In this document: in pieces, positions 7,057-44,489 of the stretch
Position numbering within the stretch: the stretch's first letter is position 1
Layout: each line of letters opens with the position of its first letter
Virus record (IMG/VR): IMGVR_UViG_3300031992_000041
Location: 64,001-108,489 of that record
Length of the DNA stretch: 44,489 nucleotides
DNA from: a virus
Lineage: Duplodnaviria; Heunggongvirae; Uroviricota; Caudoviricetes
Reading direction: 5' to 3' (one strand)
Notes under the pieces: model-generated
What the model was told of the DNA's origin: nothing
Seen by the model: the letters and a program-made list of their open reading frames with translations, nothing else
The model's database searches: none
Position numbers and translations under genes: made by a program

Positions 7057-7791
7057 ATGGCAACAATCTACAAGGAAGGGTCTCGCGGTGAGGTAGTGAG
7101 ACAGATACAGAGGGTGGCAGGATGCTACCCCGACGGCGTGTGGGGCAGACGCACCACCGAGGCGGTCATGGACTGGCAGAAGGCCCACGGGCTCAATGCC
7201 GACGGCCTCGCAGGGCCTGCGACGCTGGCGGCCATGGGTCTGGCGGCGGCGAAGGCGGCGGTGACCACCGTCGCGGCGAAGGACTCCATCCGGCACGGCG
7301 ACATCACGCTGAAGAAGAGCAGGCGGAGGATCGACTATATAGTGGTACACTGCACGGCGACGCGCGAGGGACAGGCGAAGACCGTCGAGGACATCCGCCG
7401 CGAGCACAAGGCACAGGGATGGAGCGACATAGGCTACCACTACGTGGTGGACCTGAAGGGGCATACGCACCTGGGGCGCGACGTGGACATATCAGGATCG
7501 CACGTCAGCGGCTACAACACATACTCCATCGGCGTGGTGTACGTCGGCGGGCTGGAGAACGACCCGAGGAAACTGTATAAGGACCTGAAGGCGAAGGACA
7601 CGCGCACCGACGCGCAGAAGGCAGAACTGCTGTCGCTCCTGATGGACCTGAGGCGGCTGTACCCCAAGGCCAGGATACAGGGGCACCGCGACTTCTCTGA
7701 GGACAAGAACGGCAACGGCGTCATCGACCCGTGGGAGCGCATCAAGGAGTGCCCGTCGTTCGACGCGAAGAACGAGTACCGAAACATTTAG
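7057..7791 (+). CDS. Endolysin: peptidoglycan-binding domain plus N-acetylmuramoyl-L-alanine amidase (T7 lysozyme-like)
   Basis: DGVWGRRT and DGLAGPATL binding motifs; IVVHCTAT, DIGYHY, GHRD, KECPSF zinc-amidase motifs; start set at MATIYK. Confidence 0.92.
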   Translation: MATIYKEGSRGEVVRQIQRVAGCYPDGVWGRRTTEAVMDWQKAHGLNADGLAGPATLAAMGLAAAKAAVTTVAAKDSIRHGDITLKKSRRRIDYIVVHCTATREGQAKTVEDIRREHKAQGWSDIGYHYVVDLKGHTHLGRDVDISGSHVSGYNTYSIGVVYVGGLENDPRKLYKDLKAKDTRTDAQKAELLSLLMDLRRLYPKARIQGHRDFSEDKNGNGVIDPWERIKECPSFDAKNEYRNI

Positions 7792-7794
7792 GAT

Positions 7795-8448
7795 ATGGAT
7801 AAGACGACGCTACCACAGGAACTGATGTCGTGCTCGCTGCTGCACTTCGAGAGCGGCGTGCCCATCGACGACCTGAACCTGCGGCCCGACCAGAGGCGCA
7901 GGCTGGCGAGGGTGCAGCATGTCTACTGGCAGTGGGTGAGGAACCCGTGGCTGGACACCTACCAACTGTTCCGCCAGATGGTGAGGGGCCAGTTCTCCGG
8001 CGCACCGAACGAGACGCGTGCCGCCAAGATGGACGAGATGCTGTTCAAGTTCGTCCGCGACCACGTGGCTCCGCCGAGCCGTGCGGAGTCGCGGGCGAAG
8101 GTGTATGCCGCCGCCGACAAGATGATACAAATAGGCATGCAGAACGACGACGTGATGGCCCTCGACAAAGGCAGCAAGCGCCTGTACGACGTGGCCGGCC
8201 TGGACAAGCCGGAGGAGGACAGAGCCGACATGAACAGGCTTTCGTTCCTGCCGCCGGTGGTTACCACAAGTGCCAGGGAGGTTGACGAGACCAAGGAGGA
8301 CGTTGACGATCCTGAGATGAAGCGCATCATGGCCAAGTACGGCGGTTACGTGGACGATAAAGAGAAAGACATCAGCAGGATGGTCGAGACGATGGAGGCA
8401 CGGAGCGGCGTGACGGAGGAAGAGCGGCATGAGCAGGATAGGCAGTAA
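7795..8448 (+). CDS. Hypothetical protein, possible terminase small subunit (position only)
   Basis: 217 aa helical ORF overlapping the start of the large terminase. Confidence 0.45.
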   Translation: MDKTTLPQELMSCSLLHFESGVPIDDLNLRPDQRRRLARVQHVYWQWVRNPWLDTYQLFRQMVRGQFSGAPNETRAAKMDEMLFKFVRDHVAPPSRAESRAKVYAAADKMIQIGMQNDDVMALDKGSKRLYDVAGLDKPEEDRADMNRLSFLPPVVTTSAREVDETKEDVDDPEMKRIMAKYGGYVDDKEKDISRMVETMEARSGVTEEERHEQDRQ

Positions 8449-10345
8449 CCCGAACGTGAGCAGCGACCTGCTGGAAGCCCGTATGCTACCCAACGTGGAA
8501 GACCCTGATCCGGAATCAGAGTCGGAGGGCGGTTACATGGACTACCAGGGCGACGGGCGCTTCAAGGTGTATATGGCCCCGTGGCAGAAGAAGGTGCGCA
8601 ACTTCGGCTCGCGCTCCACAAAGGTGTTGGCAGGGCGCGCGACGGGTAAGTCGGCATTCCTTGCCTTCAATATGGCGGATGTCACCATCGGACTGCCAAG
8701 GATGATGGGCGGCTTCTGCGGTGCCAGTGCCAAGCAGAACTACACCCGTACCATGCCCAACGTACTGAAGGTGATGAACCTCCTGGGCTTTGCAGAGGGT
8801 TTCATTTATTTCCTCGGTCGGCCGCCCGCCAGGTTGCGATGGCCTATGCCGCTGGCAAAGCCCCGTGTGTGGGAGAACTGCGTCAGTTTTGCCAACGGGT
8901 TTGTCTGGCAACAAATATCACTTGCTGTCAAGGGTAGTGCTAACGGCTTGAACCTTGCTGCCCTGATGGGTGACGAGACCAAGTATATGCCGTGGCAGCG
9001 CGTGAAAGAAGAAGTACTGCCTACACTGCGTGGTGACTTCATGCCGCCGTCTGCACGTAGAGTGGAAAAACGGGAGTGGGGCAGGGGTACAGACCCCAAG
9101 GTGAACAACCACTGGCTCTCTCAGCTCTGGGTGAGCGATGCCGGACTGAACGCCCGCGAATGCCAGTGGGAGAAGGAGGCCGAGTTTGAGACCCACGAGG
9201 TCAACGAGAAGATCAAGGTGATGATGGCAGAACTCCGCTATCTGGAGAAGCACCATCCAAAACAGGCTGCGCTGCTTGCCAAGAACGACAGTTTTCTGAA
9301 AGAACTGTACGCCCTGCGCACTCAGTCTGAGACCTTCTGGCGTTTTAGCAGCATCGAGAATGCGGCACTCTTAGGAGGTGAGGCGTGGATTCGCCAGATG
9401 AAGAGGGAATTACCCGACCTGCTCTTCCGTCTGCAGATTCTGGGACAGCCCCGTGGCAATGCGCGCGAGGGCTTCTATTGTAACTTCTCTGAGTTGAACA
9501 CCTACGTCAGCGAGGAAATCACGGACTTGGTTTTCGACAAATACAGTACACGCATCAAGGGTAAGGCTCTTGACGTGCAGCGGTGGCCGACGGAATATGA
9601 GAGCGAGTCGCTGGACTGGGACCAGATGCAGCAGGACGGCGAGGACTGCTCGCTCGACCTCGACCTGGACTATCAGGAGCCGCTGCGCATAGCGCTTGAC
9701 GCCAACTCGGACATCAACTGCTTTGTGGTCGGCCAGACGCGCATACATCAGGGCCGTGCGGCGGTGATGGTGATGAAGGAGTTCTTTGTGCAGGGTGAGG
9801 TACGCCTGCGCGGACTGTCAAGGCTCTTCGCCCAGTACTACCGCCCGTTCCTGCGCCGTGGCTGCAAGGAGGTTATCTTCTACGTGGCCAGCAGCATCAA
9901 GCAGGGAGCCAGCAAGGCGTATGCCCTGGAGGAGTCTGAGCAGAGCCGTTTCGACATCGTAGTGGCCGACGAACTGACCAGTTTCGGCTTTAAGGTGACA
10001 CGTGCGGAGTTCACGTCATGGCGGCATGAGCGCAAGTACCAGTATATCAACGACTGCTTTGCAGGTGCTGCATCGCCCTCGATATTCATCAACCGCGAGG
10101 CAAACCGCTGTGTCTATCTCCGTGCGGCTATCGAGAACTGCGCCATCGTCCCAGGCACGTTCCGCAAATACAAGGATGCGGAGAAACTACGCTCGGAAGA
10201 CGGCATAGGAGGCGATAAGCGTGAGCGCGCCACGATAACCGACGCTTTCGACGACTTGATATTAGGGATCAAGGAATGTGCTGAGGGGAAGCCGAAGATC
10301 GGCGGCGGGCTGCGCGGGCGGTTCTCCAACCTGAGGACACAATGA
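8429..10345 (+). CDS. terL: Terminase large subunit
   Basis: Walker A GRATGKS, Walker B MGDETKY, nuclease acidic residues LDANSD and TDAFDD; upstream of portal. Confidence 0.85.
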   Translation: MSRIGSNPNVSSDLLEARMLPNVEDPDPESESEGGYMDYQGDGRFKVYMAPWQKKVRNFGSRSTKVLAGRATGKSAFLAFNMADVTIGLPRMMGGFCGASAKQNYTRTMPNVLKVMNLLGFAEGFIYFLGRPPARLRWPMPLAKPRVWENCVSFANGFVWQQISLAVKGSANGLNLAALMGDETKYMPWQRVKEEVLPTLRGDFMPPSARRVEKREWGRGTDPKVNNHWLSQLWVSDAGLNARECQWEKEAEFETHEVNEKIKVMMAELRYLEKHHPKQAALLAKNDSFLKELYALRTQSETFWRFSSIENAALLGGEAWIRQMKRELPDLLFRLQILGQPRGNAREGFYCNFSELNTYVSEEITDLVFDKYSTRIKGKALDVQRWPTEYESESLDWDQMQQDGEDCSLDLDLDYQEPLRIALDANSDINCFVVGQTRIHQGRAAVMVMKEFFVQGEVRLRGLSRLFAQYYRPFLRRGCKEVIFYVASSIKQGASKAYALEESEQSRFDIVVADELTSFGFKVTRAEFTSWRHERKYQYINDCFAGAASPSIFINREANRCVYLRAAIENCAIVPGTFRKYKDAEKLRSEDGIGGDKRERATITDAFDDLILGIKECAEGKPKIGGGLRGRFSNLRTQ

Positions 10346-35702: not shown

Positions 35703-36854
35703 ATGGAAAAAGCAAAACGACCGAAAATCAGGTACCGGCTGACCTGGAACTACGGCAACCGACTTGACAGGCAGGGTCGATCGCCGGTGGCCCTGGAGTG
35801 CAGGCAGGGAACAAGGAAGATATACATATCGTCGAAGGTTATGCTCGCGGCAGGGCAATGGATGGACGGCAGGGTGGTCAACCACCAGAACGCAGACAAA
35901 CTGACCGTCTGGCTCGTGCGATGGATGAACTCCATCGAGGAGATCGAACTCGACGCGCTGCTGGCAGGCTCGCAGATGTCGCTCGCGCAACTGAAGTCGG
36001 CCGTCAGCGACAGCGCGCACCGGTCGGCCTCGCTCAGGGACTTCACGGAGAGGTTCCTCGACGGCGACTCCAGCCGCTGTGAGACCACGAAGCGGTCGTA
36101 CCGCTACATGGTGAACGACCTGGAGAAGGAGTACGGCAGCCTGACCGTTGGCGACGTGAACTACGACCTGATCGTGCGATGGCGCGAGGTCATGCGGCGC
36201 AGGAATCTCAGCGAGAACACCATCAGAGGCCGCCTGAAGGCATTGCGCTGCCTGATGGAGCAGGCGCGGCTGCGCGACATCATCGAGAGGAACCCGTTCG
36301 ACAGCATCACCATCGGCAACATAGGGGGCCGCAAGGGAGGACTGACCGTCGGCGAGGTTCGCAGGCTGGAGAGGCTCAACCTGTCCGGCAAGGAGGAGAA
36401 GGTGCGCGACCTCTTCCTGGTTGGATGCTACACGGGCCTCCGCTGGGGCGACCTGTCGTCGCTTGAAGAGTCGGAGATCCACAACGGCATCCTGCGCAAG
36501 ACCATGCACAAGACGCACCACGAGGTGGCCATTCCGCTGGCCACGCTCTTCTGGGGCAAGGGAATGCGTATCATGGAGAAGTACCCCGACATCCGCGTAC
36601 TGTCTAAATGCGTGTGCAACACCACCGCCAACCGCATCCTGAAAGACTTGGCCGAAAGGGCGAAGATCAAGAAACGCGTGTACATGCACCTGGCCAGGAA
36701 GACGTTCTCGCAGATGCTCAACTCACTGGGCATGGAAAGATCTGACATCACCATGCTCATGGGCCACCGCGACGTACGCACGACACTCACGCACTACATC
36801 TTTAACGACACTGACCGCATCAAGAAATCCGTGAAGAAAATCTTTAAGACATAG
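35703..36854 (+). CDS. Tyrosine recombinase (Bacteroidetes integrase type), probable shufflon recombinase
   Basis: Catalytic set YTGLRWGD (R), MHKT (K), HLARKT (HxxR), MGH..TTLTHY (H,Y); N-terminal arm-binding-like and SAM-like domains; ends 56 bp before the first array site. Confidence 0.93.
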   Translation: MEKAKRPKIRYRLTWNYGNRLDRQGRSPVALECRQGTRKIYISSKVMLAAGQWMDGRVVNHQNADKLTVWLVRWMNSIEEIELDALLAGSQMSLAQLKSAVSDSAHRSASLRDFTERFLDGDSSRCETTKRSYRYMVNDLEKEYGSLTVGDVNYDLIVRWREVMRRRNLSENTIRGRLKALRCLMEQARLRDIIERNPFDSITIGNIGGRKGGLTVGEVRRLERLNLSGKEEKVRDLFLVGCYTGLRWGDLSSLEESEIHNGILRKTMHKTHHEVAIPLATLFWGKGMRIMEKYPDIRVLSKCVCNTTANRILKDLAERAKIKKRVYMHLARKTFSQMLNSLGMERSDITMLMGHRDVRTTLTHYIFNDTDRIKKSVKKIFKT

Positions 36855-36909: not shown

Positions 36910-36926
36910 GCAATTCGTGCTGGGCG
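36910..36926 (+). repeat. Left terminal 17-bp inverted repeat / recombination site
   Basis: GCAATTCGTGCTGGGCG equals the reverse complement of 44473-44489. Confidence 0.9.
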
Positions 36927-37192
36927 TTGGAACTCGTATATATAGTTCCGCTGACTTGGATAGTTTGTCTAATGGCGTATATGGATGGAATACCAACGGC
37001 GAGACGCCTACTCACTCTCCATTTACTGGCGGTGGCACTGTATTGCAATATGGAGATTGGGTGAAGACACAGATTTGCCAATCCTATGGTGGAGCAACGT
37101 ATAGCAGGAACAAACAAGGCTCTGGGGACTGGACTTCTTGGGTGCGTTGCGATAACTATGGAACATCGACACCTGCCGACCTCGCTTCACTG
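36920..37192 (+). CDS. Cassette C1 (knob-like domain plus linker, read-through into C2)
   Basis: LGVGTRIYSSADLDSLSNGVYGW...SRNKQGSGDWTSWVRCDNYGTSTPADLASL; no stop. Confidence 0.8.
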
Positions 37193-37480
37193 CTGGGCGC
37201 GTTATGCTTTAACAAGATTGGTAACACTAATCCAGACAACGTCCATCATACTATGTTTTTTAGGTTTGGAGGCTATACGGTAAAACACTCGTCAGGTTCT
37301 TATGCTGGAGCCTATGGTCTCGGTGTGTCTTTTGTGGAGGAAGGTGTAAGCGATACATACTATGACGAATTTATTTTGGTTCACAACACCGACACCATCT
37401 ATTATCGTAGTGCGACTATCGCCAATAATGGTACTTTGGATTGGAGTACCATAAATTGGAAAACAGTGACAAGTGTATAA
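37193..37480 (+). CDS. Cassette C2
   Basis: Starts at CTGGGCG; LGALCFNKIGN...IYYRSATIANNGTLDWSTINWKTVTSV*; hairpin 37491-37508 follows. Confidence 0.8.
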   Translation: MGALCFNKIGNTNPDNVHHTMFFRFGGYTVKHSSGSYAGAYGLGVSFVEEGVSDTYYDEFILVHNTDTIYYRSATIANNGTLDWSTINWKTVTSV

Positions 37481-37509
37481 CAAAACAAGAGGGAGGCTCA
37501 GGCCTCCCA

Positions 37510-37737
37510 TTATTGCGTCACTTTTGTTGCTTGTATACTTGCCCAAGAAATCCACGAGCCATTTAAACCAAATCTCGTCCTAAATAGCACATTAGGGTTG
37601 CCTGCATAGTCGTTTGGTACATATACTTGCAAAGTAATTATATTGTTTGTTGCAGCAATTACTATAAACATCCCCCATTTGTAGATAGCCCCCGGTATTC
37701 TGACGTCTGCATTATCCATTCTATAAACTCCTGGGCG
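37510..37737 (-). pseudogene. Cassette C3, 5'-truncated by the site at 37731
   Basis: RPGVYRMDNADVRIPGAIYKWGMF...FRTRFGLNGSWISWASIQATKVTQ*; in-frame stop just upstream, no site of its own. Confidence 0.7.
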
Positions 37738-37991
37738 GAATAGTTACAGAACTTGGTTCATCAGATGATCTATTCGACCTGCCTTACCCAGGCTATTATT
37801 ATTGGAATTCAATATCCCAGGCACCGGCGAATACACCAAATGGAGGACCCCAAGGTAGTTATGTCGAGTATCGTGCTTACATGTCTATCAAAACACTGAG
37901 AGTATACAACAATGGAGGAAGGATTTACACCAATATCTATTGGAACGGATGGAAAGGTTGGAATCAAGTCACATTGACACCGGTTTCGTGA
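37731..37991 (+). CDS. Cassette C4
   Basis: Hand translation LGGIVTELGSSDDLFDLPYPGYYYW...IYTNIYWNGWKGWNQVTLTPVS*; hairpin 37996-38016. Confidence 0.8.
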   Translation: MGGIVTELGSSDDLFDLPYPGYYYWNSISQAPANTPNGGPQGSYVEYRAYMSIKTLRVYNNGGRIYTNIYWNGWKGWNQVTLTPVS

Positions 37992-38019
37992 TAAGAGGTA
38001 GGGCCAAGCCCTACCTTTT

Positions 38020-38298
38020 TTATTGAACGGTTGGGATTTCAATCCATGTAGATGGCCACACAAAATCTTGCCCCTTTGGAGTGTACTTACACCTATAATA
38101 TTTCTTTCCGTTACCAATATATGTTATTTCTTGATAAGCATAGTCTCTAACAATTATACACCTGCCCAAACCATAGCAACCGATTAACCCATTGATAGTC
38201 TGCTGACCAAACCGAAACAAGGTATTTTGCTCACCTGCCATATCATCTAAATTTGTAATAGGATTATTTGGGGCAATTACGATAGAAATTACGCCCAG
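38020..38298 (-). CDS. Cassette C5
   Basis: LGVISIVIAPNNPITNLDD...YYRCKYTPKGQDFVWPSTWIEIPTVQ*. Confidence 0.8.
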   Translation of the reverse strand: MGVISIVIAPNNPITNLDDMAGEQNTLFRFGQQTINGLIGCYGLGRCIIVRDYAYQEITYIGNGKKYYRCKYTPKGQDFVWPSTWIEIPTVQ

Positions 38299-38306
38299 AA
38301 TTCGCG

Positions 38307-38579
38307 CTGGGTGGCACAATACAAGGAATAGTTACTCCTGATACCTATGATAGTGCGGACAAAAACGGCTTATATCAAGTAAATGGGTCAAGCGCAACAG
38401 ACCCTATTCTTGACTGGGGACGTCTATTCACGGCTGTTCAAGGTGTAACCCATTGTCTTCAAATCAAATATTGTGCCAATGCTAAAACAATTATTATAAG
38501 GTACAAATACAAAACCTCTTCCATGAGTGCTGCCGAGTGGACTGCGTGGAGTAAAGTAAATGTAACCGCTCTCACATAG
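38307..38579 (+). CDS. Cassette C6 (site variant CTGGGTG)
   Basis: Hand translation LGGTIQGIVTPDTYDSADKNGLYQV...IRYKYKTSSMSAAEWTAWSKVNVTALT*. Confidence 0.8.
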   Translation: MGGTIQGIVTPDTYDSADKNGLYQVNGSSATDPILDWGRLFTAVQGVTHCLQIKYCANAKTIIIRYKYKTSSMSAAEWTAWSKVNVTALT

Positions 38580-38595
38580 AGGGCGGTTATTACAT

Positions 38596-38928
38596 CTGGG
38601 CGTTCCTGATATTAGTGGATTATTCAATGCATTCAATATTCCAGCAAACTCAGACTTAAATGATTTGACTAGTTATCCTTGCTACAAAAGTCCAGGACAA
38701 TCGGTAAGTTCAACATTGTCAAACATACCATCTGACTTAACCACATCGGTTGGCTTTATTCTTCTTAACTTTAAGCCTTATACAGGTGTATCATATTCAG
38801 TCCAAGTCATATTGCAAACTGTATTCGATAGGACAACAACTCCGAAGATTTGGGCGCGTGGACAGACCGACCATTTGGATAATAGCAAGTGGACCGTTTG
38901 GGGGCGTGTATCATTGACAACAGTATAA
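38596..38928 (+). CDS. Cassette C7
   Basis: LGVPDISGLFNAFNIPANSDLNDLTSYPCY...IWARGQTDHLDNSKWTVWGRVSLTTV*; hairpin 38931-38956. Confidence 0.8.
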   Translation: MGVPDISGLFNAFNIPANSDLNDLTSYPCYKSPGQSVSSTLSNIPSDLTTSVGFILLNFKPYTGVSYSVQVILQTVFDRTTTPKIWARGQTDHLDNSKWTVWGRVSLTTV

Positions 38929-38954
38929 AAAGAGGTAGGATTAATTTTCTACCT

Positions 38955-39233
38955 CTATAATGTTCTCCAATCGGTCCACACTGAGTTATATCTGTACCTT
39001 GTATATATCATCCCGTTTCTGTCATAAAGAGTTTGCGTAATGTAATAATCCGATATATTGGCTACATCAAGGAAGAAACGTGTTGTGTTAAGAAAGCCTG
39101 TCGGAAGATTATTTGGAGCGGTTGTTAGGACATAAAACGTACTTGTTTTATATCCATCATTTCCTATCTCATTGTCTAAATCGGACGTTGCAGATGATTG
39201 AAATATCCGTGTCTTTATACCAACTGCGCCCAG
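38955..39233 (-). CDS. Cassette C8
   Basis: LGAVGIKTRIFQSSATSDLDN...IYTRYRYNSVWTDWRTL*. Confidence 0.8.
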   Translation of the reverse strand: MGAVGIKTRIFQSSATSDLDNEIGNDGYKTSTFYVLTTAPNNLPTGFLNTTRFFLDVANISDYYITQTLYDRNGMIYTRYRYNSVWTDWRTL

Positions 39234-39241
39234 AATTCGCG

Positions 39242-39535
39242 CTGGGCGGAATAAGCACAACTATAACATCAGATAATGACCTTGATAATATTACGGGAAC
39301 TGGTATCTACAAGTTTACTAATTCTACCCCTCAGAACAGTCCTGTTGAACTTGGTGTTGTTGTTGTTTTTTCAGCGCGTCTATCAGGAGATATCTATGGT
39401 GTCATCCAGTTTGCATCAGACACAAGAGGAGGGCGTAACAAAGAAAGAATAGTAAACATATATTACAGGGTCGCATGGACTAATGCTACTAACGGATGGA
39501 GTAAGTGGGCAATGATTAATACCACTGAGGTCTGA
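39242..39535 (+). CDS. Cassette C9
   Basis: LGGISTTITSDNDLDNITGTGIY...YYRVAWTNATNGWSKWAMINTTEV*; hairpin 39542-39564. Confidence 0.8.
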   Translation: MGGISTTITSDNDLDNITGTGIYKFTNSTPQNSPVELGVVVVFSARLSGDIYGVIQFASDTRGGRNKERIVNIYYRVAWTNATNGWSKWAMINTTEV

Positions 39536-39568
39536 TAATAAGAGGTGGGCTAACAACCCACCTCATTA

Positions 39569-39883
39569 TTATGATACAAATGCTATTTTCTTCCATTCAG
39601 TCCAAGTATACGGAGTTGACATATTAGTCACGTTCCTAATCCATATACCATCTAACTGAATGAATATCTGTGTCTCGAACGCAGTGATATCGCCATAAGG
39701 CTTAATGTTAATTACACTGAATCCATAATTTGTTGATGCTGTTTTTGGCATATTTACAACAGTCTTTGATATAGAAGCGGATTGACATCTGTAGGATGCC
39801 CTTAATGTCAATTGGTTCAAGTCATCATTACTGTTGATTTTTTCATCCGCTGCAATAGAGCCTACGACACATGCCACGCCCAG
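39569..39883 (-). CDS. Cassette C10
   Basis: LGVACVVGSIAADEKINSNDDLNQL...IWIRNVTNMSTPYTWTEWKKIAFVS*. Confidence 0.8.
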   Translation of the reverse strand: MGVACVVGSIAADEKINSNDDLNQLTLRASYRCQSASISKTVVNMPKTASTNYGFSVINIKPYGDITAFETQIFIQLDGIWIRNVTNMSTPYTWTEWKKIAFVS

Positions 39884-39885
39884 AA

Positions 39886-40155
39886 TCAAGAAAGAGTAAA
39901 CGTCTTCCAAGGTGAGAATGTTCCACCTACACTCCAAACATTACGAATCTTTATATAACGAAGTTGATAATCAAATTTTACCTGAATACCCCTTTTTGAT
40001 GTAGGGTAACCGGAAACACGACCAACTTTGACGTTGGTGTATAGAAGGAATATATCGTCTGTTATTCCTTGGTCATAACAATACCATCCAGGTTCGAGAG
40101 AACCTAAGAATTCGTCACTCTTATCTGTTATTGCGGTGTATATCACCCCGCCCAG
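39886..40155 (-). CDS. Cassette C11
   Basis: LGGVIYTAITDKSDEFLGSLEPGWY...KIRNVWSVGGTFSPWKTFTLS*; stop 2 bp before the next site. Confidence 0.8.
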   Translation of the reverse strand: MGGVIYTAITDKSDEFLGSLEPGWYCYDQGITDDIFLLYTNVKVGRVSGYPTSKRGIQVKFDYQLRYIKIRNVWSVGGTFSPWKTFTLS

Positions 40156-40163
40156 AAGGGGTT

Positions 40164-40454
40164 CTGGGCGGTATTACTACACCAATATCTCAAAATGACA
40201 ACATTGATAATTATCGAAATTGCGGGAGATTTGCATGCGCATCAAATGCAATAGCATCGACACTAACAGGGCTCCCGTCTGGCTATAATAGTGGAGGATT
40301 CATCTTATTCGTTCTTCCAAGTTCGCAATCTGATAACGGTTTTAGGATTCAGTTGATGGTTAATTATAGGTGTACTGCTGTATACATACGTGCTTATCAA
40401 AGCAATGTTTGGGAAGGTTGGCGTACAATAACAACAAATGCCGTAACAGCATAA
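40164..40454 (+). CDS. Cassette C12
   Basis: LGGITTPISQNDNIDNYRNCGRF...YIRAYQSNVWEGWRTITTNAVTA*; hairpin 40455-40480. Confidence 0.8.
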   Translation: MGGITTPISQNDNIDNYRNCGRFACASNAIASTLTGLPSGYNSGGFILFVLPSSQSDNGFRIQLMVNYRCTAVYIRAYQSNVWEGWRTITTNAVTA

Positions 40455-40519
40455 AGGATGTTAGCGCATACCAACATCCTACACAGACAAAGCAAATGGG
40501 AGGTATAAGCCTCCCTTTA

Positions 40520-40626
40520 CTATACTGGTGTATTTGTCAACTTGTACCAATCAGAAACAATGCTTGAACCTCCATTGATATCCCTGCAATATATTCTTAA
40601 AGTTGAATCTCGCACATAGAATTGCA
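40520..40626 (-). pseudogene. C13: orphan 3' fragment paralogous to C18
   Basis: LQFYVRDSTLRIYCRDINGGSSIVSDWYKLTNTPV* versus C18 VQFYVRDTSLNTYCRDINGGSGTISSWFKFTNTPVQ*; own hairpin 40498-40515. Confidence 0.75.
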
Positions 40627-40696
40627 AAGTTATGGTGTGCTTGTGTACGCTCTTCCGCATCGTCCTCCTTTGAACAGTGAACGAACAATAGAACCT

Positions 40697-40849
40697 CTTG
40701 GCGGTGAGGCTGATTTCGCAAATGTCACTACCTTAAAAATAATCAGGGGTTCAGATGGTTCGGCAGATATTGGTCATATCACCTTAACTAATTCATGTTC
40801 AGAACTAAGACAATTTCTCTATTCTTACATTCCAGTAAGAACAACATAA
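40697..40849 (+). pseudogene. C14: short cassette at variant site CTTGGCG
   Basis: LGGEADFANVTTLKIIRGSDGSADIGHITLTNSCSELRQFLYSYIPVRTT*; hairpin 40862-40882. Confidence 0.45.
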
Positions 40850-40895
40850 GTTAAGAAAAAGAAGGGAGGTACTTCCTCCCTTTTTTACACTGTCA

Positions 40896-41225
40896 TTAGA
40901 ACGACACTTTCTTTACGCTTAAAACTGCGGTTTTCCCGTTTTTTATGGTCACTGCAATAGTAAATCCGTCAGTCTGTGAGTTATTTTTTTCAATACTAAG
41001 CGTGGATGATGACAATGCCCCATTGCTCCATAAGACCTGTACGTCTTTCTGCCATGTCGCCCTGTCGCATACGGCCACAAGCAAATAGTTTTCTATGTTT
41101 TCTCCAATTAAATTGATGCTATATATCTTTATAGCAGACCCACCTCTTGCGCTTGTCCATTGATAACTCCCAGACACGCTAACAGAATCAGAAATAACCT
41201 CTGTCGTGTTGCCCACTCCGCCCAG
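40896..41225 (-). CDS. Cassette C15 (non-knob, beta-rich)
   Basis: LGGVGNTTEVISDSVSVSGSYQW...TAVLSVKKVSF*; lacks the terminal W-x-x-W. Confidence 0.75.
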   Translation of the reverse strand: MGGVGNTTEVISDSVSVSGSYQWTSARGGSAIKIYSINLIGENIENYLLVAVCDRATWQKDVQVLWSNGALSSSTLSIEKNNSQTDGFTIAVTIKNGKTAVLSVKKVSF

Positions 41226-41238
41226 CAATAATAATAAA

Positions 41239-41526
41239 TTATGTAATTAATGTCAATGATACTTGGTACCAGCCATCACTCCATCTTGTACCATTCCAAG
41301 TACGGATATATTCTTGAGGAAAAATATTGTTTGGATAGATTTTCTGAATCAATCGTGTACCATTTATATTGCTTGTTGGTAGTACTTCAAGCCTAAAACC
41401 AGAACCAACAACAGGACAATTTGCAAGCGTCGCGGCAGTAGCGGAATCAGTACAATAGTACGCTCCAATACCAATAATATCATTAAGATCTTGATTGGCA
41501 CTAATCTTTGTTGCTGTCCCGCCCAG
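41239..41526 (-). CDS. Cassette C16
   Basis: LGGTATKISANQDLNDIIGIGAYY...GFRLEV...YIRTWNGTRWSDGWYQVSLTLIT*. Confidence 0.8.
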   Translation of the reverse strand: MGGTATKISANQDLNDIIGIGAYYCTDSATAATLANCPVVGSGFRLEVLPTSNINGTRLIQKIYPNNIFPQEYIRTWNGTRWSDGWYQVSLTLIT

Positions 41527-41535
41527 CACGAGATT

Positions 41536-41811
41536 CTGGGCGTGTCGTGGATAACGATTTTTAAAAGTGGGGCTCTTTCTGAATGCTATCGAAACGGTTT
41601 GTATGCTATACAGTACAACAATGTTGCAGATATCACGGACATTCCTTGCAATGGACATGGATATATGATCACCCTGAGTGCTACGAACGTATCTTCCACA
41701 ACGTTTGCGCAACTATATGTCTCAATTGTTGGTAGAGCGTTTTTTCGTGTTAGAAATGGTGCTGTTGTTCTGTCTAACTGGAAAGAATTGACAGCAACGG
41801 GAATATCGTAA
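41536..41811 (+). CDS. Cassette C17
   Basis: LGVSWITIFKSGALSECYRNGLY...FFRVRNGAVVLSNWKELTATGIS*; hairpin 41813-41838. Confidence 0.8.
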   Translation: MGVSWITIFKSGALSECYRNGLYAIQYNNVADITDIPCNGHGYMITLSATNVSSTTFAQLYVSIVGRAFFRVRNGAVVLSNWKELTATGIS

Positions 41812-41836
41812 AAAAGGGAGGTTTTTTAGCCTCCCT

Positions 41837-42133
41837 TTACTGTACTGGTGTATTTGTAAACTTGAACCAGGAAGAAATTGTGCCTGAACCACCATTGATA
41901 TCCCTGCAATATGTATTTAAACTTGTATCTCGCACATAGAATTGCACAGAACTTCCACTAATAAATAGATTTATAAGAAAGCCAAAAGCACGTTCAGGCA
42001 TGTCTTGGAACTTACCTGTATTAATAACAGCCGTAGGCACAGCCATTAATATATTCTTTCTCAAACTTGCAATACCTTCAAATGTATCTGGCGTCGAGGA
42101 ATCGGAGGCTGCAAGTGTTACAAATGCGCCCAG
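41837..42133 (-). CDS. Cassette C18
   Basis: LGAFVTLAASDSSTPDTF...YCRDINGGSGTISSWFKFTNTPVQ*. Confidence 0.8.
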   Translation of the reverse strand: MGAFVTLAASDSSTPDTFEGIASLRKNILMAVPTAVINTGKFQDMPERAFGFLINLFISGSSVQFYVRDTSLNTYCRDINGGSGTISSWFKFTNTPVQ

Positions 42134-42213
42134 CGCACCAAAATATATCATAGTATTAGATTTAGAAATGATTGACAAGGCTCACTGTGGTGGGCCATTT
42201 TTCATATAAATAA

Positions 42214-42245
42214 TTTGGTAGTTTCAGATATTATTCCTATCTTTG
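42214..42245 (+). promoter_or_regulatory. Housekeeping promoter inside the array
   Basis: TTTG (42214-42217), 20 bp, TATCTTTG (42238-42245); preceded by a hairpin plus T-run at about 42179-42202. Confidence 0.7.
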
Positions 42246-42262
42246 CTGGCAAATAAAACATA

Positions 42263-42517
42263 ATGAATATGCAAACAGACATTAGTAACAAAGTACCACA
42301 AGGGACTTACGAAGTAGCCACACGAGAAACTTTTCCTGGAAAAGTAATGTTTTCTGATGAAAGTATAATACTGACCCCTGAGAATGATAGTAACAAACAA
42401 ACGAGGCTATATTCCGACAATAATAAACATGAGATAAGGATTTCCACTCGTCACAGGAAAGATGAAAAGCATCCTTGGAGTGAGTGGGAATTGAAGTCTA
42501 CTATATCTAATAGATAA
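42263..42517 (+). CDS. Stand-alone small protein with its own ATG and promoter
   Basis: 84 aa, no CTGGGCG site; ends ISTRHRKDEKHPWSEWELKSTISNR; hairpin 42519-42545. Confidence 0.7.
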   Translation: MNMQTDISNKVPQGTYEVATRETFPGKVMFSDESIILTPENDSNKQTRLYSDNNKHEIRISTRHRKDEKHPWSEWELKSTISNR

Positions 42518-42559
42518 TAAAAGGAAGGCGATGAGCCTCCCTTTTATCTATTATAAATC

Positions 42560-42823
42560 TTACTGTCTTAATGTTACTTCCACTTTGTACCAAGGCTTCC
42601 ATTCGTTGTTCCACATAACTCTAAATCCAAGGCCTGAAACTTCAATATTGTTTGGCCACTGAAGTTGAAAAATTTGTGTCCCTGCTTTCCAAACTAAGAG
42701 CAGCGAGCCTTGTGGTCTGAAATTATTTAATGGAGCAGTACCACTGCCAGACCACGAATATACACCTGCACTTACAATATTATTTAGGTCGTTTTGATTT
42801 GTAATGATAGTTGCTTCGCCCAG
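42560..42823 (-). CDS. Cassette C19
   Basis: LGEATIITNQNDLNNIVSAGVYSW...FRVMWNNEWKPWYKVEVTLRQ*. Confidence 0.8.
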   Translation of the reverse strand: MGEATIITNQNDLNNIVSAGVYSWSGSGTAPLNNFRPQGSLLLVWKAGTQIFQLQWPNNIEVSGLGFRVMWNNEWKPWYKVEVTLRQ

Positions 42824-43007
42824 AACTTCCACCAATAAATAGATTTATAAGAAAGCCAAAAGCACGTTCAGGCATGTCTTGGAACTTACCTGTATTAATA
42901 ACAGCCGTAGGCACAGCCATTAATATATTCTTTCTCAACCCTGCAATACCTTCAAATGTATCTGGCGTCGAGGATTCGGAGGCTGCAAGTGTTACAAATG
43001 CGCCCAG
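42824..43007 (-). pseudogene. C20: 3'-truncated near-identical copy of C18
   Basis: 4 mismatches to 41950-42133 over 184 bp; joined out of frame to the C19 site. Confidence 0.85.
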
Positions 43008-43016
43008 AACCACAAT

Positions 43017-43196
43017 TCAAGGCAGCGCGATTCCTTCATGTTTAATCCATGGCCCCCATATTTCTCCATTGAGAGTCCTATGGTAAAACGTATTTTTTGC
43101 AGTTGTACCAGCCGTCAAACGTTGCACAATATGAGTAGTAGTCGTACCCATGACAAGAACCTCTAAGACGAAGCCATCTCGGGTTAACTCTTCTGG
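43017..43196 (-). pseudogene. C21: 5'-truncated cassette
   Basis: Hand translation PEELTRDGFVLEVLVMG...FYHRTLNGEIWGPWIKHEGIALP*; cut by the plus-strand site at 43193. Confidence 0.75.
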
Positions 43197-43489
43197 GCGG
43201 TATTCCTCAAACTATCATTAACGACGGTAGCCCAAATTTAGATCTCAATACTTTATTTACATGTGGTATCTATGCGGTAGCAAAATCATCCGCTTGGCCA
43301 AATATTTACAACAAGCCTACAGGCGTTTTGACAGGTGGTAACATTATAGTACTTGTTGGAGGAAACAACAGTTACAGATTACAGATTATCATATCGTTAA
43401 ACGGCATGATTTTCTTAAGATACATCCATACCGATTCTGCCAACAACACCCACTGGTTCAAGATTCAACTGACAGATGACGGACAATAG
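43193..43489 (+). CDS. Cassette C22
   Basis: Hand translation LGGIPQTIINDGSPNLDLNTLFTCGIY...FLRYIHTDSANNTHWFKIQLTDDGQ*. Confidence 0.8.
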   Translation: MGGIPQTIINDGSPNLDLNTLFTCGIYAVAKSSAWPNIYNKPTGVLTGGNIIVLVGGNNSYRLQIIISLNGMIFLRYIHTDSANNTHWFKIQLTDDGQ

Positions 43490-43508
43490 AAGAGGAGGGC
43501 AAAGAAAC

Positions 43509-43562
43509 TTAAACGAGGTAAAAGGTTGCACCTTCATTAATAAGAAAGTTTTTAACGCCAAG
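43509..43562 (-). pseudogene. C23: 17-aa mini-cassette at variant site CTTGGCG
   Basis: LGVKNFLINEGATFYLV*. Confidence 0.55.
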
Positions 43563-43572
43563 CACGAGATTT

Positions 43573-43836
43573 CTGGGCGTGTTGCCTATCCTTAATAGCA
43601 ATGGTACAATCACTGACTTGGATACTTTGAGTAACCCAAGTGGGTGGTATAAATTTAACGCTTCACAGAATGTTGCCAATGTCCCAACTAGTTTTACTGA
43701 TGGATTCGTTTGGATAATGAGAACTTCTGACAACAACATTTTCCAAATGGCTCTTAAATATGATTTTTCTATGTTTGTGATTAGACTTAAATGGGGACAA
43801 AATTGGACTAATTGGAAGAGTATATCATTATCATAA
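43573..43836 (+). CDS. Cassette C24
   Basis: LGVLPILNSNGTITDLDTLSNPSGWY...IRLKWGQNWTNWKSISLS*; hairpin 43840-43863. Confidence 0.8.
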   Translation: MGVLPILNSNGTITDLDTLSNPSGWYKFNASQNVANVPTSFTDGFVWIMRTSDNNIFQMALKYDFSMFVIRLKWGQNWTNWKSISLS

Positions 43837-43864
43837 ACAAGAGGTGGGTTAATGCCCACCTCTA

Positions 43865-44173
43865 TTATGCTTTAACCCAGTCTGTCCATTCAGAATTTAA
43901 ACCAGCCCTATAGACGCGCAGATAAACGCCGTTATTTCCAAAAGACTGCATACCGACACCCGTAACGAATAAAACTTGAACCGACCTTGAATTGACATTC
44001 CATCCATAGGAAAGCAAAAGTGCCTGGTCTTTGGTAATACCTGTAGGGCCGTTAACCCAATTGTTCTCGTTGGTAATATAATATAAACCGTAGTCTATGG
44101 CTTGGTTGAAGTCAAAGTTTGGGACAGGACCTCTTCTCTTGAGATAGCCCGTTATAAGATTATCCCCGCCCAG
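43865..44173 (-). CDS. Cassette C25
   Basis: LGGDNLITGYLKRRGPVPNFDFNQAIDYGLYY...YLRVYRAGLNSEWTDWVKA*. Confidence 0.8.
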   Translation of the reverse strand: MGGDNLITGYLKRRGPVPNFDFNQAIDYGLYYITNENNWVNGPTGITKDQALLLSYGWNVNSRSVQVLFVTGVGMQSFGNNGVYLRVYRAGLNSEWTDWVKA

Positions 44174-44479
44174 CGCGGAGGCAAGTTGTGCTAAATATGT
44201 TGGTCTTGTAAGAATGTCTGTTGAATAATCCATAATCCAATCACTCCAAGTTGGAGTTGGAGCGTTAGTTACCATAGTTCTTTTATAGGTAATTCCTTCT
44301 GCCATCTTTATAAAGTACTGTATAGTATAATTATTTGCGACTTCTACATACAAAACTCCATAGGTGTTTACAGGCCAATAAGTACCTTGGTATGCATATA
44401 TTCTATATTTACCTTGCGTCCGTAATGCGTCAATGTCAGCATCTGTCTTGTTCCCATAATCAATTGTGTTAGCGCCCAG
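44174..44479 (-). CDS. Cassette C26 (knob-like domain plus linker, read-through into C25); frame stays open to the right edge
   Basis: LGANTIDYGNKTDADIDALRTQGKY...YKRTMVTNAPTPTWSDWIMDYSTDILTRPTYLAQLASA; upstream codons CAA TTC GTG up to the window end. Confidence 0.8.
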
Positions 44480-44489
44480 CACGAATTGC
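44473..44489 (-). repeat. Right terminal 17-bp inverted repeat / probable expression-site junction
   Basis: Reverse complement GCAATTCGTGCTGGGCG, identical to 36910-36926; the match is cut off by the window end. Confidence 0.85.

Follow-up and report, generated by a model that had tools for sequence, protein, structure and literature searches.

We analysed a candidate DNA-inversion locus, an array of cassettes encoding tail-fibre knobs beside a tyrosine recombinase gene, in the IMG/VR virus record IMGVR_UViG_3300031992_000041. The window, that is the whole stretch of 44,489 nucleotides (nt) under analysis, forms the last 44.5 kb of this 108,489-bp record, which CheckV rates as 91% complete and linear. 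The record belongs to a siphovirus-like phage encoding a tape measure protein of 2,676 amino acids (aa); its sequence was found in sheep-gut runs, and fragments of relatives were found in bovine, goat and other gut runs. The recombinase gene (35703-36854, plus strand, 383 aa) carries the Pfam domains Phage_integrase and Phage_int_SAM_5, is classed as an integrase by PHROG, and reads towards the array, with 55 bp between the gene end and the first site. Its catalytic residues R247, K270, H329, R332, H355 and Y365 are unchanged across four relatives, and it is presumably the invertase responsible for the rearrangements described below. From 36910 to the record end, the guanine-plus-cytosine (GC) content drops from ~60% to ~40%, so that the array lies ~20 points under the phage backbone. 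A search of the 108-kb record with a cassette profile found 22 knob domains, every one of them between 36920 and 44479, with two in each of the end open reading frames (ORFs). Judging from the GC gap, lower-GC phages are the apparent source of, or exchange partner for, the cassette pool (36910-44489).

Copies of the heptamer CTGGGCG punctuate the array. Exact cores number 20 within it (9 on the plus and 11 on the minus strand), compared with 9.4 expected across the whole window, and each is in frame as Leu-Gly and heads a knob ORF of 86-110 aa. Outside the core nothing is conserved save a T(T/G) immediately ahead. At the two ends the similarity extends further. The 17-mer GCAATTCGTGCTGGGCG has exactly two copies in the window, inverted with respect to each other: one beside the recombinase gene (36910-36926, plus strand, core 36920-36926) and one on the expression side (44473-44489, minus strand), where the record ends. 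As the earlier note had proposed, this exact repeat is limited to the leading sites of the two end cassettes. The next-best matches, at 39232 (plus) and 41520 (minus), carry three mismatches, with ~0.25 matches expected by chance at three mismatches or fewer. Because other sites match at 14 of the 17 bases, the outer sites are, by their sequences, the best-matched pair and no clearly separate class. The upstream half of the site at 36920 is silent, with only 10 open codons before stops are reached, and in run X3 the match to a 98% identical relative stops exactly at 36926.

Between the end cassettes lies the inner array (37516-43862, both strands, GC ~40% against ~60% elsewhere in the phage). 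Its 16 complete cassettes carry a single knob each; besides them there are two partial knobs and one duplicate that is truncated. Five pairs of its sites stand head to head, and hairpin terminators are shared. The earlier note had numbered its cassettes up to C26; our count is ~20 intact cassettes plus remnants. The head-to-head pairs (38292-38313, 39227-39248, 40149-40170, 41520-41542 and 43556-43579) are near-palindromes of the form CGCCCAG-N8-10-CTGGGCG that serve cassettes on both strands, and two of their spacers (AATTCGCG) are one base off the 8 bases preceding the outer cores (AATTCGTG). A 190-nt direct duplication of 97% identity occupies 41944-42133 and 42818-43007; its second copy is the truncated cassette, of 75 aa, which runs into the next one, and contigs from the source sample break at both copies.

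The two end cassettes, C1 (36920-37480, plus strand) and C26 (44479-43865, minus strand), are the only ones without a stop after the first knob. In C1 the proximal knob (36920-37192, knob profile E 5e-17) continues through a linker ending ...TPADLASL into an internal in-frame core (37193-37199) and a distal knob of 95 aa plus stop (37193-37480, family D3), after which a hairpin follows at 37483-37514. In C26 the proximal knob (44174-44479, minus strand; its relatives P0002-P0004 are 92-93% identical over this half of the cassette) ends its linker in ...TYLAQLASA and reads into a core at 44167-44173 and a distal knob of 102 aa plus stop (43865-44173, minus strand). A second in-frame core was found only in the ORFs starting at 36920 (186 aa) and 44479 (204 aa), at 37193 and 44173, respectively. 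Translation and profile search therefore bear out the earlier note, which had described these two cassettes alone as reading through a ...LAS-LG linker into a second site and a second knob.

Proximal and distal cassettes align as one domain family, with the pattern LG..I...DL.....G.Y.....N.P....G......Q......Y.R....W..W. The cassette profile matches the R2 pyocin fibre knob 6cl6 (E 7.5e-9) and further phage receptor-binding proteins. One knob was modelled from a 20-sequence alignment at a predicted local distance difference test score (pLDDT) of 91, and the model superimposes on the R1/R2 pyocin fibres 6ct8, 6cl6 and 6cl5 with template modelling (TM) scores of 0.75-0.76 and on staphylococcal phage receptor-binding proteins with TM scores of ~0.6-0.7. 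For the two-knob C26 a single-sequence model reached a pLDDT of 32, with the linker below 50, and this model is the sole basis for calling the linker helical. The knob profile yielded 8,926 matches in 1.84 billion representative proteins, the best of which are long proteins. Since these top matches carry 3-14 tandem copies, chains of knob, linker and knob are normal for the family. The unusual feature here is the siting of a recombination core in the linker between knobs.

The C26 ORF stays open to the record end, which falls on the last base of the right 17-bp repeat arm (44489). The gene map of the European Nucleotide Archive (ENA) contig ERZ27257202, from the same phage, together with the relative L011, suggests that the first ~54 codons of the tip gene, its constant part, lie beyond this point on the minus strand. 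In the ENA map the same 383-aa recombinase is succeeded immediately by a 296-aa ORF. A stretch of ~6.4 kb with no gene calls comes next and, at the far end on the minus strand, genes of 149, 86, 113 and 1,122 aa. In L011, whose recombinase is 62% identical, the recombinase-side cassette is silent and the far one is part of a 133-aa gene, made up of a 46-aa N-terminus ending ...ANLASVLGG and one knob. The same plan recurs in the human-gut arrays L051, L055, L057 and L075, with recombinases ~31% identical and constant-part endings ...LATILGG, ...LATLLGE and ...LASKLGG. The linkers of C1 and C26 thus copy the ending that is usual for constant parts in this family (...LAS-LG), and a proximal cassette is in effect a knob with an acquired copy of the expression site. 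Next to the small tip gene of the four human-gut arrays (~7500-10000 of each contig), which has a constant part of 20-100 aa ending ...LGGL/LGEL, the opposite strand carries 4-6 silent knob cassettes, beyond which lies a divergently oriented tyrosine recombinase gene. Within the 108-kb record no terminal repeats and no homologues of the L011 tip-gene neighbours were found, and the start of the record does not carry the tip gene onward. No protein of more than 363 aa holding C26 was found, and a protein-based scan of viral contigs with C26 returned no relative. An exact search of viral contigs for the 17-mer gave 9 matches, all of them unrelated chance matches in high-GC contigs.

Variant arrangements of the locus were seen in assembled metagenome contigs. 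The protein P0001, from a Joint Genome Institute (JGI) contig of 8,443 nt, and the identical P0154, from the ENA contig of 99,082 nt, both contigs being of the same phage, join the upstream half of the inner site at 37193 to the downstream half of the outer site at 44479, producing a 296-aa ORF that consists of C1-proximal, C26-proximal and C26-distal knobs. Three-knob ORFs had not been foreseen in the earlier note. The reciprocal product was sought in the ENA gene map, where locus position 10001 corresponds to window position 36917. If the 95-aa cassette and its stop were joined at 44479, then the gene should end at locus 17276, which is the observed end of the 149-aa gene; subtraction of the 95-aa cassette leaves 54 aa for the constant part. 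This agreement in length and end coordinate suggested that the gene is the reciprocal product, the constant part fused to C1-distal, and thus a one-knob tip. In the source sample, from sheep gut, Logan contigs break at 37193-37200, 41225 and 44479, and the piece bridging 37193 has a depth of 5.9, compared with ~12 in its flanks. The halved depth suggested that both forms are common in the source population. Exchange between outer and inner sites giving single-domain tips, which the earlier note had offered as a side possibility, is therefore a major form there (P0154, 149-aa gene). Relative to what the two known forms alone would predict, the breaks at 37193 and 44479 are shifted by 2-3 bases towards the core; this offset hints at further minor partners, and we do not lean on it.

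Exchange among inner sites was also observed. L012 and L013, which are ENA assemblies of a single relative, match exactly up to the last core base of a C26-proximal-like linker, at the site homologous to 44167-44173, and then continue into different distal knobs. Run X5, which comes from a different study, has 44479->44166 fused to 40172->40503, the two sides sharing 8 bases. X3 and X5 contain only 13-16% of the words of the sequence and represent related phages, not the same phage. The distal module had thus been swapped with the proximal module retained in L012/L013, in the X5 joint 44166/40172 and in P0003 as compared with P0004. The scheme put forward earlier depended on the sites at 37193 and 44167 recombining, and both do (P0001/P0154, X5, L012/L013). 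The X5 relative also lacks 706 nt (window 41828-42533) between two similar terminator hairpins of the TAAAAAAGGGAGG...CCTCCCTTT family, a deletion that takes out the 42133 cassette and a small stand-alone ORF at ~42263-42517.

Relatives of C26-proximal were found in other contexts as well, behind the upstream half of 42133 (L012) and behind an ATTCTG pseudo-site in the antisense of another cassette (L014). At L014:1120-1145 the antisense of a 43573(+)-like cassette is interrupted at ...ACATTCTG and continues as the C26-proximal knob; the corresponding place in the window (43662-43672, minus strand) reads ...ACATTCTGTGAAG. This joint has the appearance of off-target exchange, the pseudo-site having ATTCTG alone in common with real sites. 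Inversion between the two outer sites (36920 x 44479) was not seen, and source-sample contigs are unbroken across 36926, though contigs lose rare variants.

We think it likely that the locus is a tyrosine-recombinase shufflon of the Rin/R64 type acting on the small tail-fibre tip gene of a Bacteroidales phage, with one promiscuous class of site and two read-through cassettes. Three traits of a shufflon are present: a tyrosine recombinase gene adjoins the array, the 20 cores occur in both orientations, and coexisting arrangements have their junctions at the sites. The nearest genome relatives of the recombinase (GTDB, at most 38% identity) are integrases of Bacteroidales metagenome-assembled genomes from herbivore guts, which points to a Bacteroidales host and to nothing finer; no knob array was found beside these GTDB relatives. 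In the shufflon model, the ~54-aa constant N-terminus would be fused at the in-frame ...CTGGGCG (Leu-Gly) to whichever cassette lies there, and the recombinase would recombine any pair of 7-bp cores that are inverted relative to each other. C1-proximal and C26-proximal would act as adaptors, onto whose own cores further cassettes could be flipped, resulting in tips with one knob (constant+X), two knobs (constant+proximal+X) or three knobs (constant+proximal+proximal+X). A single inversion from the present arrangement could bring any of ten plus-strand cassettes behind the constant part or behind C26-proximal. The possible tips would number 18 + 36 + 36, or ~90, a figure that is a simple count and not a measurement. 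For an exchange, 7-8 bases in common at the core appear to be enough. Since the observed junctions share at most 7-10 bases around the core and nothing but the T(T/G) is conserved outside it, the conserved heptamer is most likely the strand-exchange region, as in the sfx sites of R64, with flanking arms that are only weakly specified.

Several points weigh against this model. The junctions come from assembled contigs and not from single molecules, and the three-knob ORF that we observed sits at the silent, recombinase-side position. For this phage, the constant part and the junction past 44489 are deduced from a gene map, and a search for proteins of 102-326 aa combining the constant part with C1-distal found none, which is unexplained, since a gene of the expected size, 149 aa, appears in the ENA map. 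Chance is an improbable cause of the exact 17-bp match between the end sites, and these sites may therefore have a special status, for example as a preferred pairing. Finally, the transcription and translation of two- and three-knob forms, their incorporation into virions and their effect on host range are presumed.

If the outer pair does have a special status, this could take the form of a kinetic hierarchy, in which the 17-bp pair would flip fast between the two adaptor knobs while sites sharing only the 7-bp core would recombine more slowly. Tips would then vary in knob identity, number (1-3) and order, and the locus, with ~90 tips from 7.6 kb, would be without precedent among known shufflons in varying domain count. 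We regard this proposal as doubtful, if conceivable. It is unlikely that the nested sites are instead evolutionary by-products, such that a knob captured the end of the constant region together with its site, only single-knob tips work, and multi-knob fusions are tolerated or dead intermediates. Such an origin would explain why the linkers copy the constant-region ending of relatives, and it agrees with the apparent expression of a single knob, in a product of 149 aa, by a major form of the source sample and with the single-knob cassettes present in all relatives examined. However, the read-through module is 92-98% identical, with frame, linker and site intact, in at least four other assemblies or runs, and an intact distal knob follows it each time. 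Static fibres of this family also regularly bear many tandem knobs, and the reference arrangement has a two-knob form at the expression site.

A strict two-tier design, as the earlier note had envisaged, appears quite improbable. In that design the 17-bp outer pair forms a class of its own whose inversion of the whole array picks the proximal knob, while inner sites recombine among themselves to pick the distal knob, giving 2 x 18 tips with fixed outer proximal modules. The part of the proposal that stood is the activity of the inner sites, which swap the distal knob behind a retained C26-proximal knob; the uniqueness of the exact 17-bp inverted repeat to the end sites also fits, and the record end at the limit of the 17-bp identity would fit, as we infer, an assembly graph that forks into the constant part and the recombinase flank. 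X5 has C26-proximal downstream of its diverged recombinase gene, an arrangement that routes other than outer-pair inversion could also yield. If the tiers were separate, then inner and outer sites should not be joined to each other, but 37193 is joined to 44479 in two assemblies and the length of the reciprocal gene fits, so that separate tiers are contradicted as a strict rule. The proximal modules were not fixed either, since relatives of C26-proximal stand behind the upstream half of 42133 and behind the pseudo-site. The other sites' agreement with the 17-mer argues against a separate class, and the intact source-sample contigs at 36926, from which rare variants are lost, gave no sign of the whole-array inversion. 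That the variant junctions are assembly chimeras, or products of homologous recombination between co-infecting relatives, is highly improbable even though all population evidence comes from metagenome contigs, since the junctions fall exactly on a shared core of 7-10 bp, which is less than an assembler k-mer and well under what RecA-type exchange needs, both reciprocal products fit, a tyrosine recombinase gene lies beside every such array, and source-sample contigs break at the sites.

The shufflon model places the locus beside several known systems. In the R64 shufflon the tyrosine recombinase Rci acts on asymmetric sfx sites, which have a 7-bp conserved core within a 19-bp conserved repeat, and exchanges inverted sites only; four segments yield seven C-termini on the constant N-terminus of the PilV adhesin of a plasmid pilus. 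Here the target is a phage fibre instead of a plasmid pilus adhesin, and R64 is not known to have an in-frame site inside a cassette. Closer in setting is the Rin shufflon of Bifidobacterium prophages, which is phage-encoded and comprises five stop-ended cassettes with 11-bp asymmetric in-frame sites, its isomers being present in populations (Mavrich et al. 2018, PMC6109161). The two loci share a tyrosine recombinase at one end, the constant N-terminus of a receptor-binding protein at the other, and a short in-frame site before each variable C-terminal cassette. The present locus differs in having ~20 knob cassettes, a 7-bp core, a constant part of ~54 aa and a recombinase of the Bacteroidota SAM_5 type, and in having two cassettes that read through into a further site, such that domain number can vary. 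BV01-like phages of Phocaeicola vulgatus carry a 1.7-kb system with three cassettes, six isoforms and the 10-bp motif TGGGAGAACT (2026 preprint, PMC13596623). As here, a recombinase-flanked multi-cassette inversion covers the distal end of a tail-fibre gene in a phage of a Bacteroidales host. For the BV01-like system all configurations were present in reads, and nested read-through cassettes were not reported (PMC13596623).

Two-module combinatorial switching is also known from the hsdS invertons SpnD39III and Spn556II of S. pneumoniae, where separate inverted repeats exchange two target-recognition domains independently (PMC4190663, PMC4948785). Their repeats fall into classes of 15, 298 and 85 bp, of which only the 15-bp class needs a tyrosine recombinase (PMC4948785). 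In contrast, one core serves the present array and its sites cross-react: 37193 was joined to 44479, and an outer-type cassette was found behind other upstream halves. The product here is a phage receptor-binding tip that varies in domain number and not in domain identity alone. The R1/R2 pyocin fibres (PDB 6cl5, 6cl6) have the same knob fold, and tandem knobs in one chain are usual. Static multi-knob fibres such as P0104 and P0121 also have a small ...G motif in the linker before each knob, but their domain order is fixed and their linkers contain no recombination sites. The novelty lies in how large the array is, in how very short the constant part is and, chiefly, in the read-through cassettes, whose internal sites belong to the common class and make domain number variable.

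In the phage shufflons known to date, one terminal module takes the place of another, whereas here the recombinase could also change the number of knobs, raising the repertoire from ~18 to ~90 tips by counting. If multi-knob tips are functional, the locus would give Bacteroidales phages a compact means of varying host range combinatorially; the hosts of these phages themselves use inversion to alter their surfaces. The scheme might also be adapted to engineer phages with programmable receptor-binding tips, and the 7-bp minimal core bears on how such recombinases recognise their targets.

Relatives of the recombinase at 61-62% identity adjoin comparable arrays. Ahead of the array in the relative represented by L012/L013 stand two tyrosine recombinase genes in tandem, of 449 and 390 aa (L012:6802-9378), and the first proximal site of this relative is degenerate, CTGGGTG. 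The JGI contig L015 (8200-11145) has a 61% identical recombinase and, after it, ten or more knob cassettes in a low-GC array, within which the contig ends. The core there is CTCGGCG, still encoding Leu-Gly and preceded by ATT in most copies, and core and recombinase appear to have changed in concert.

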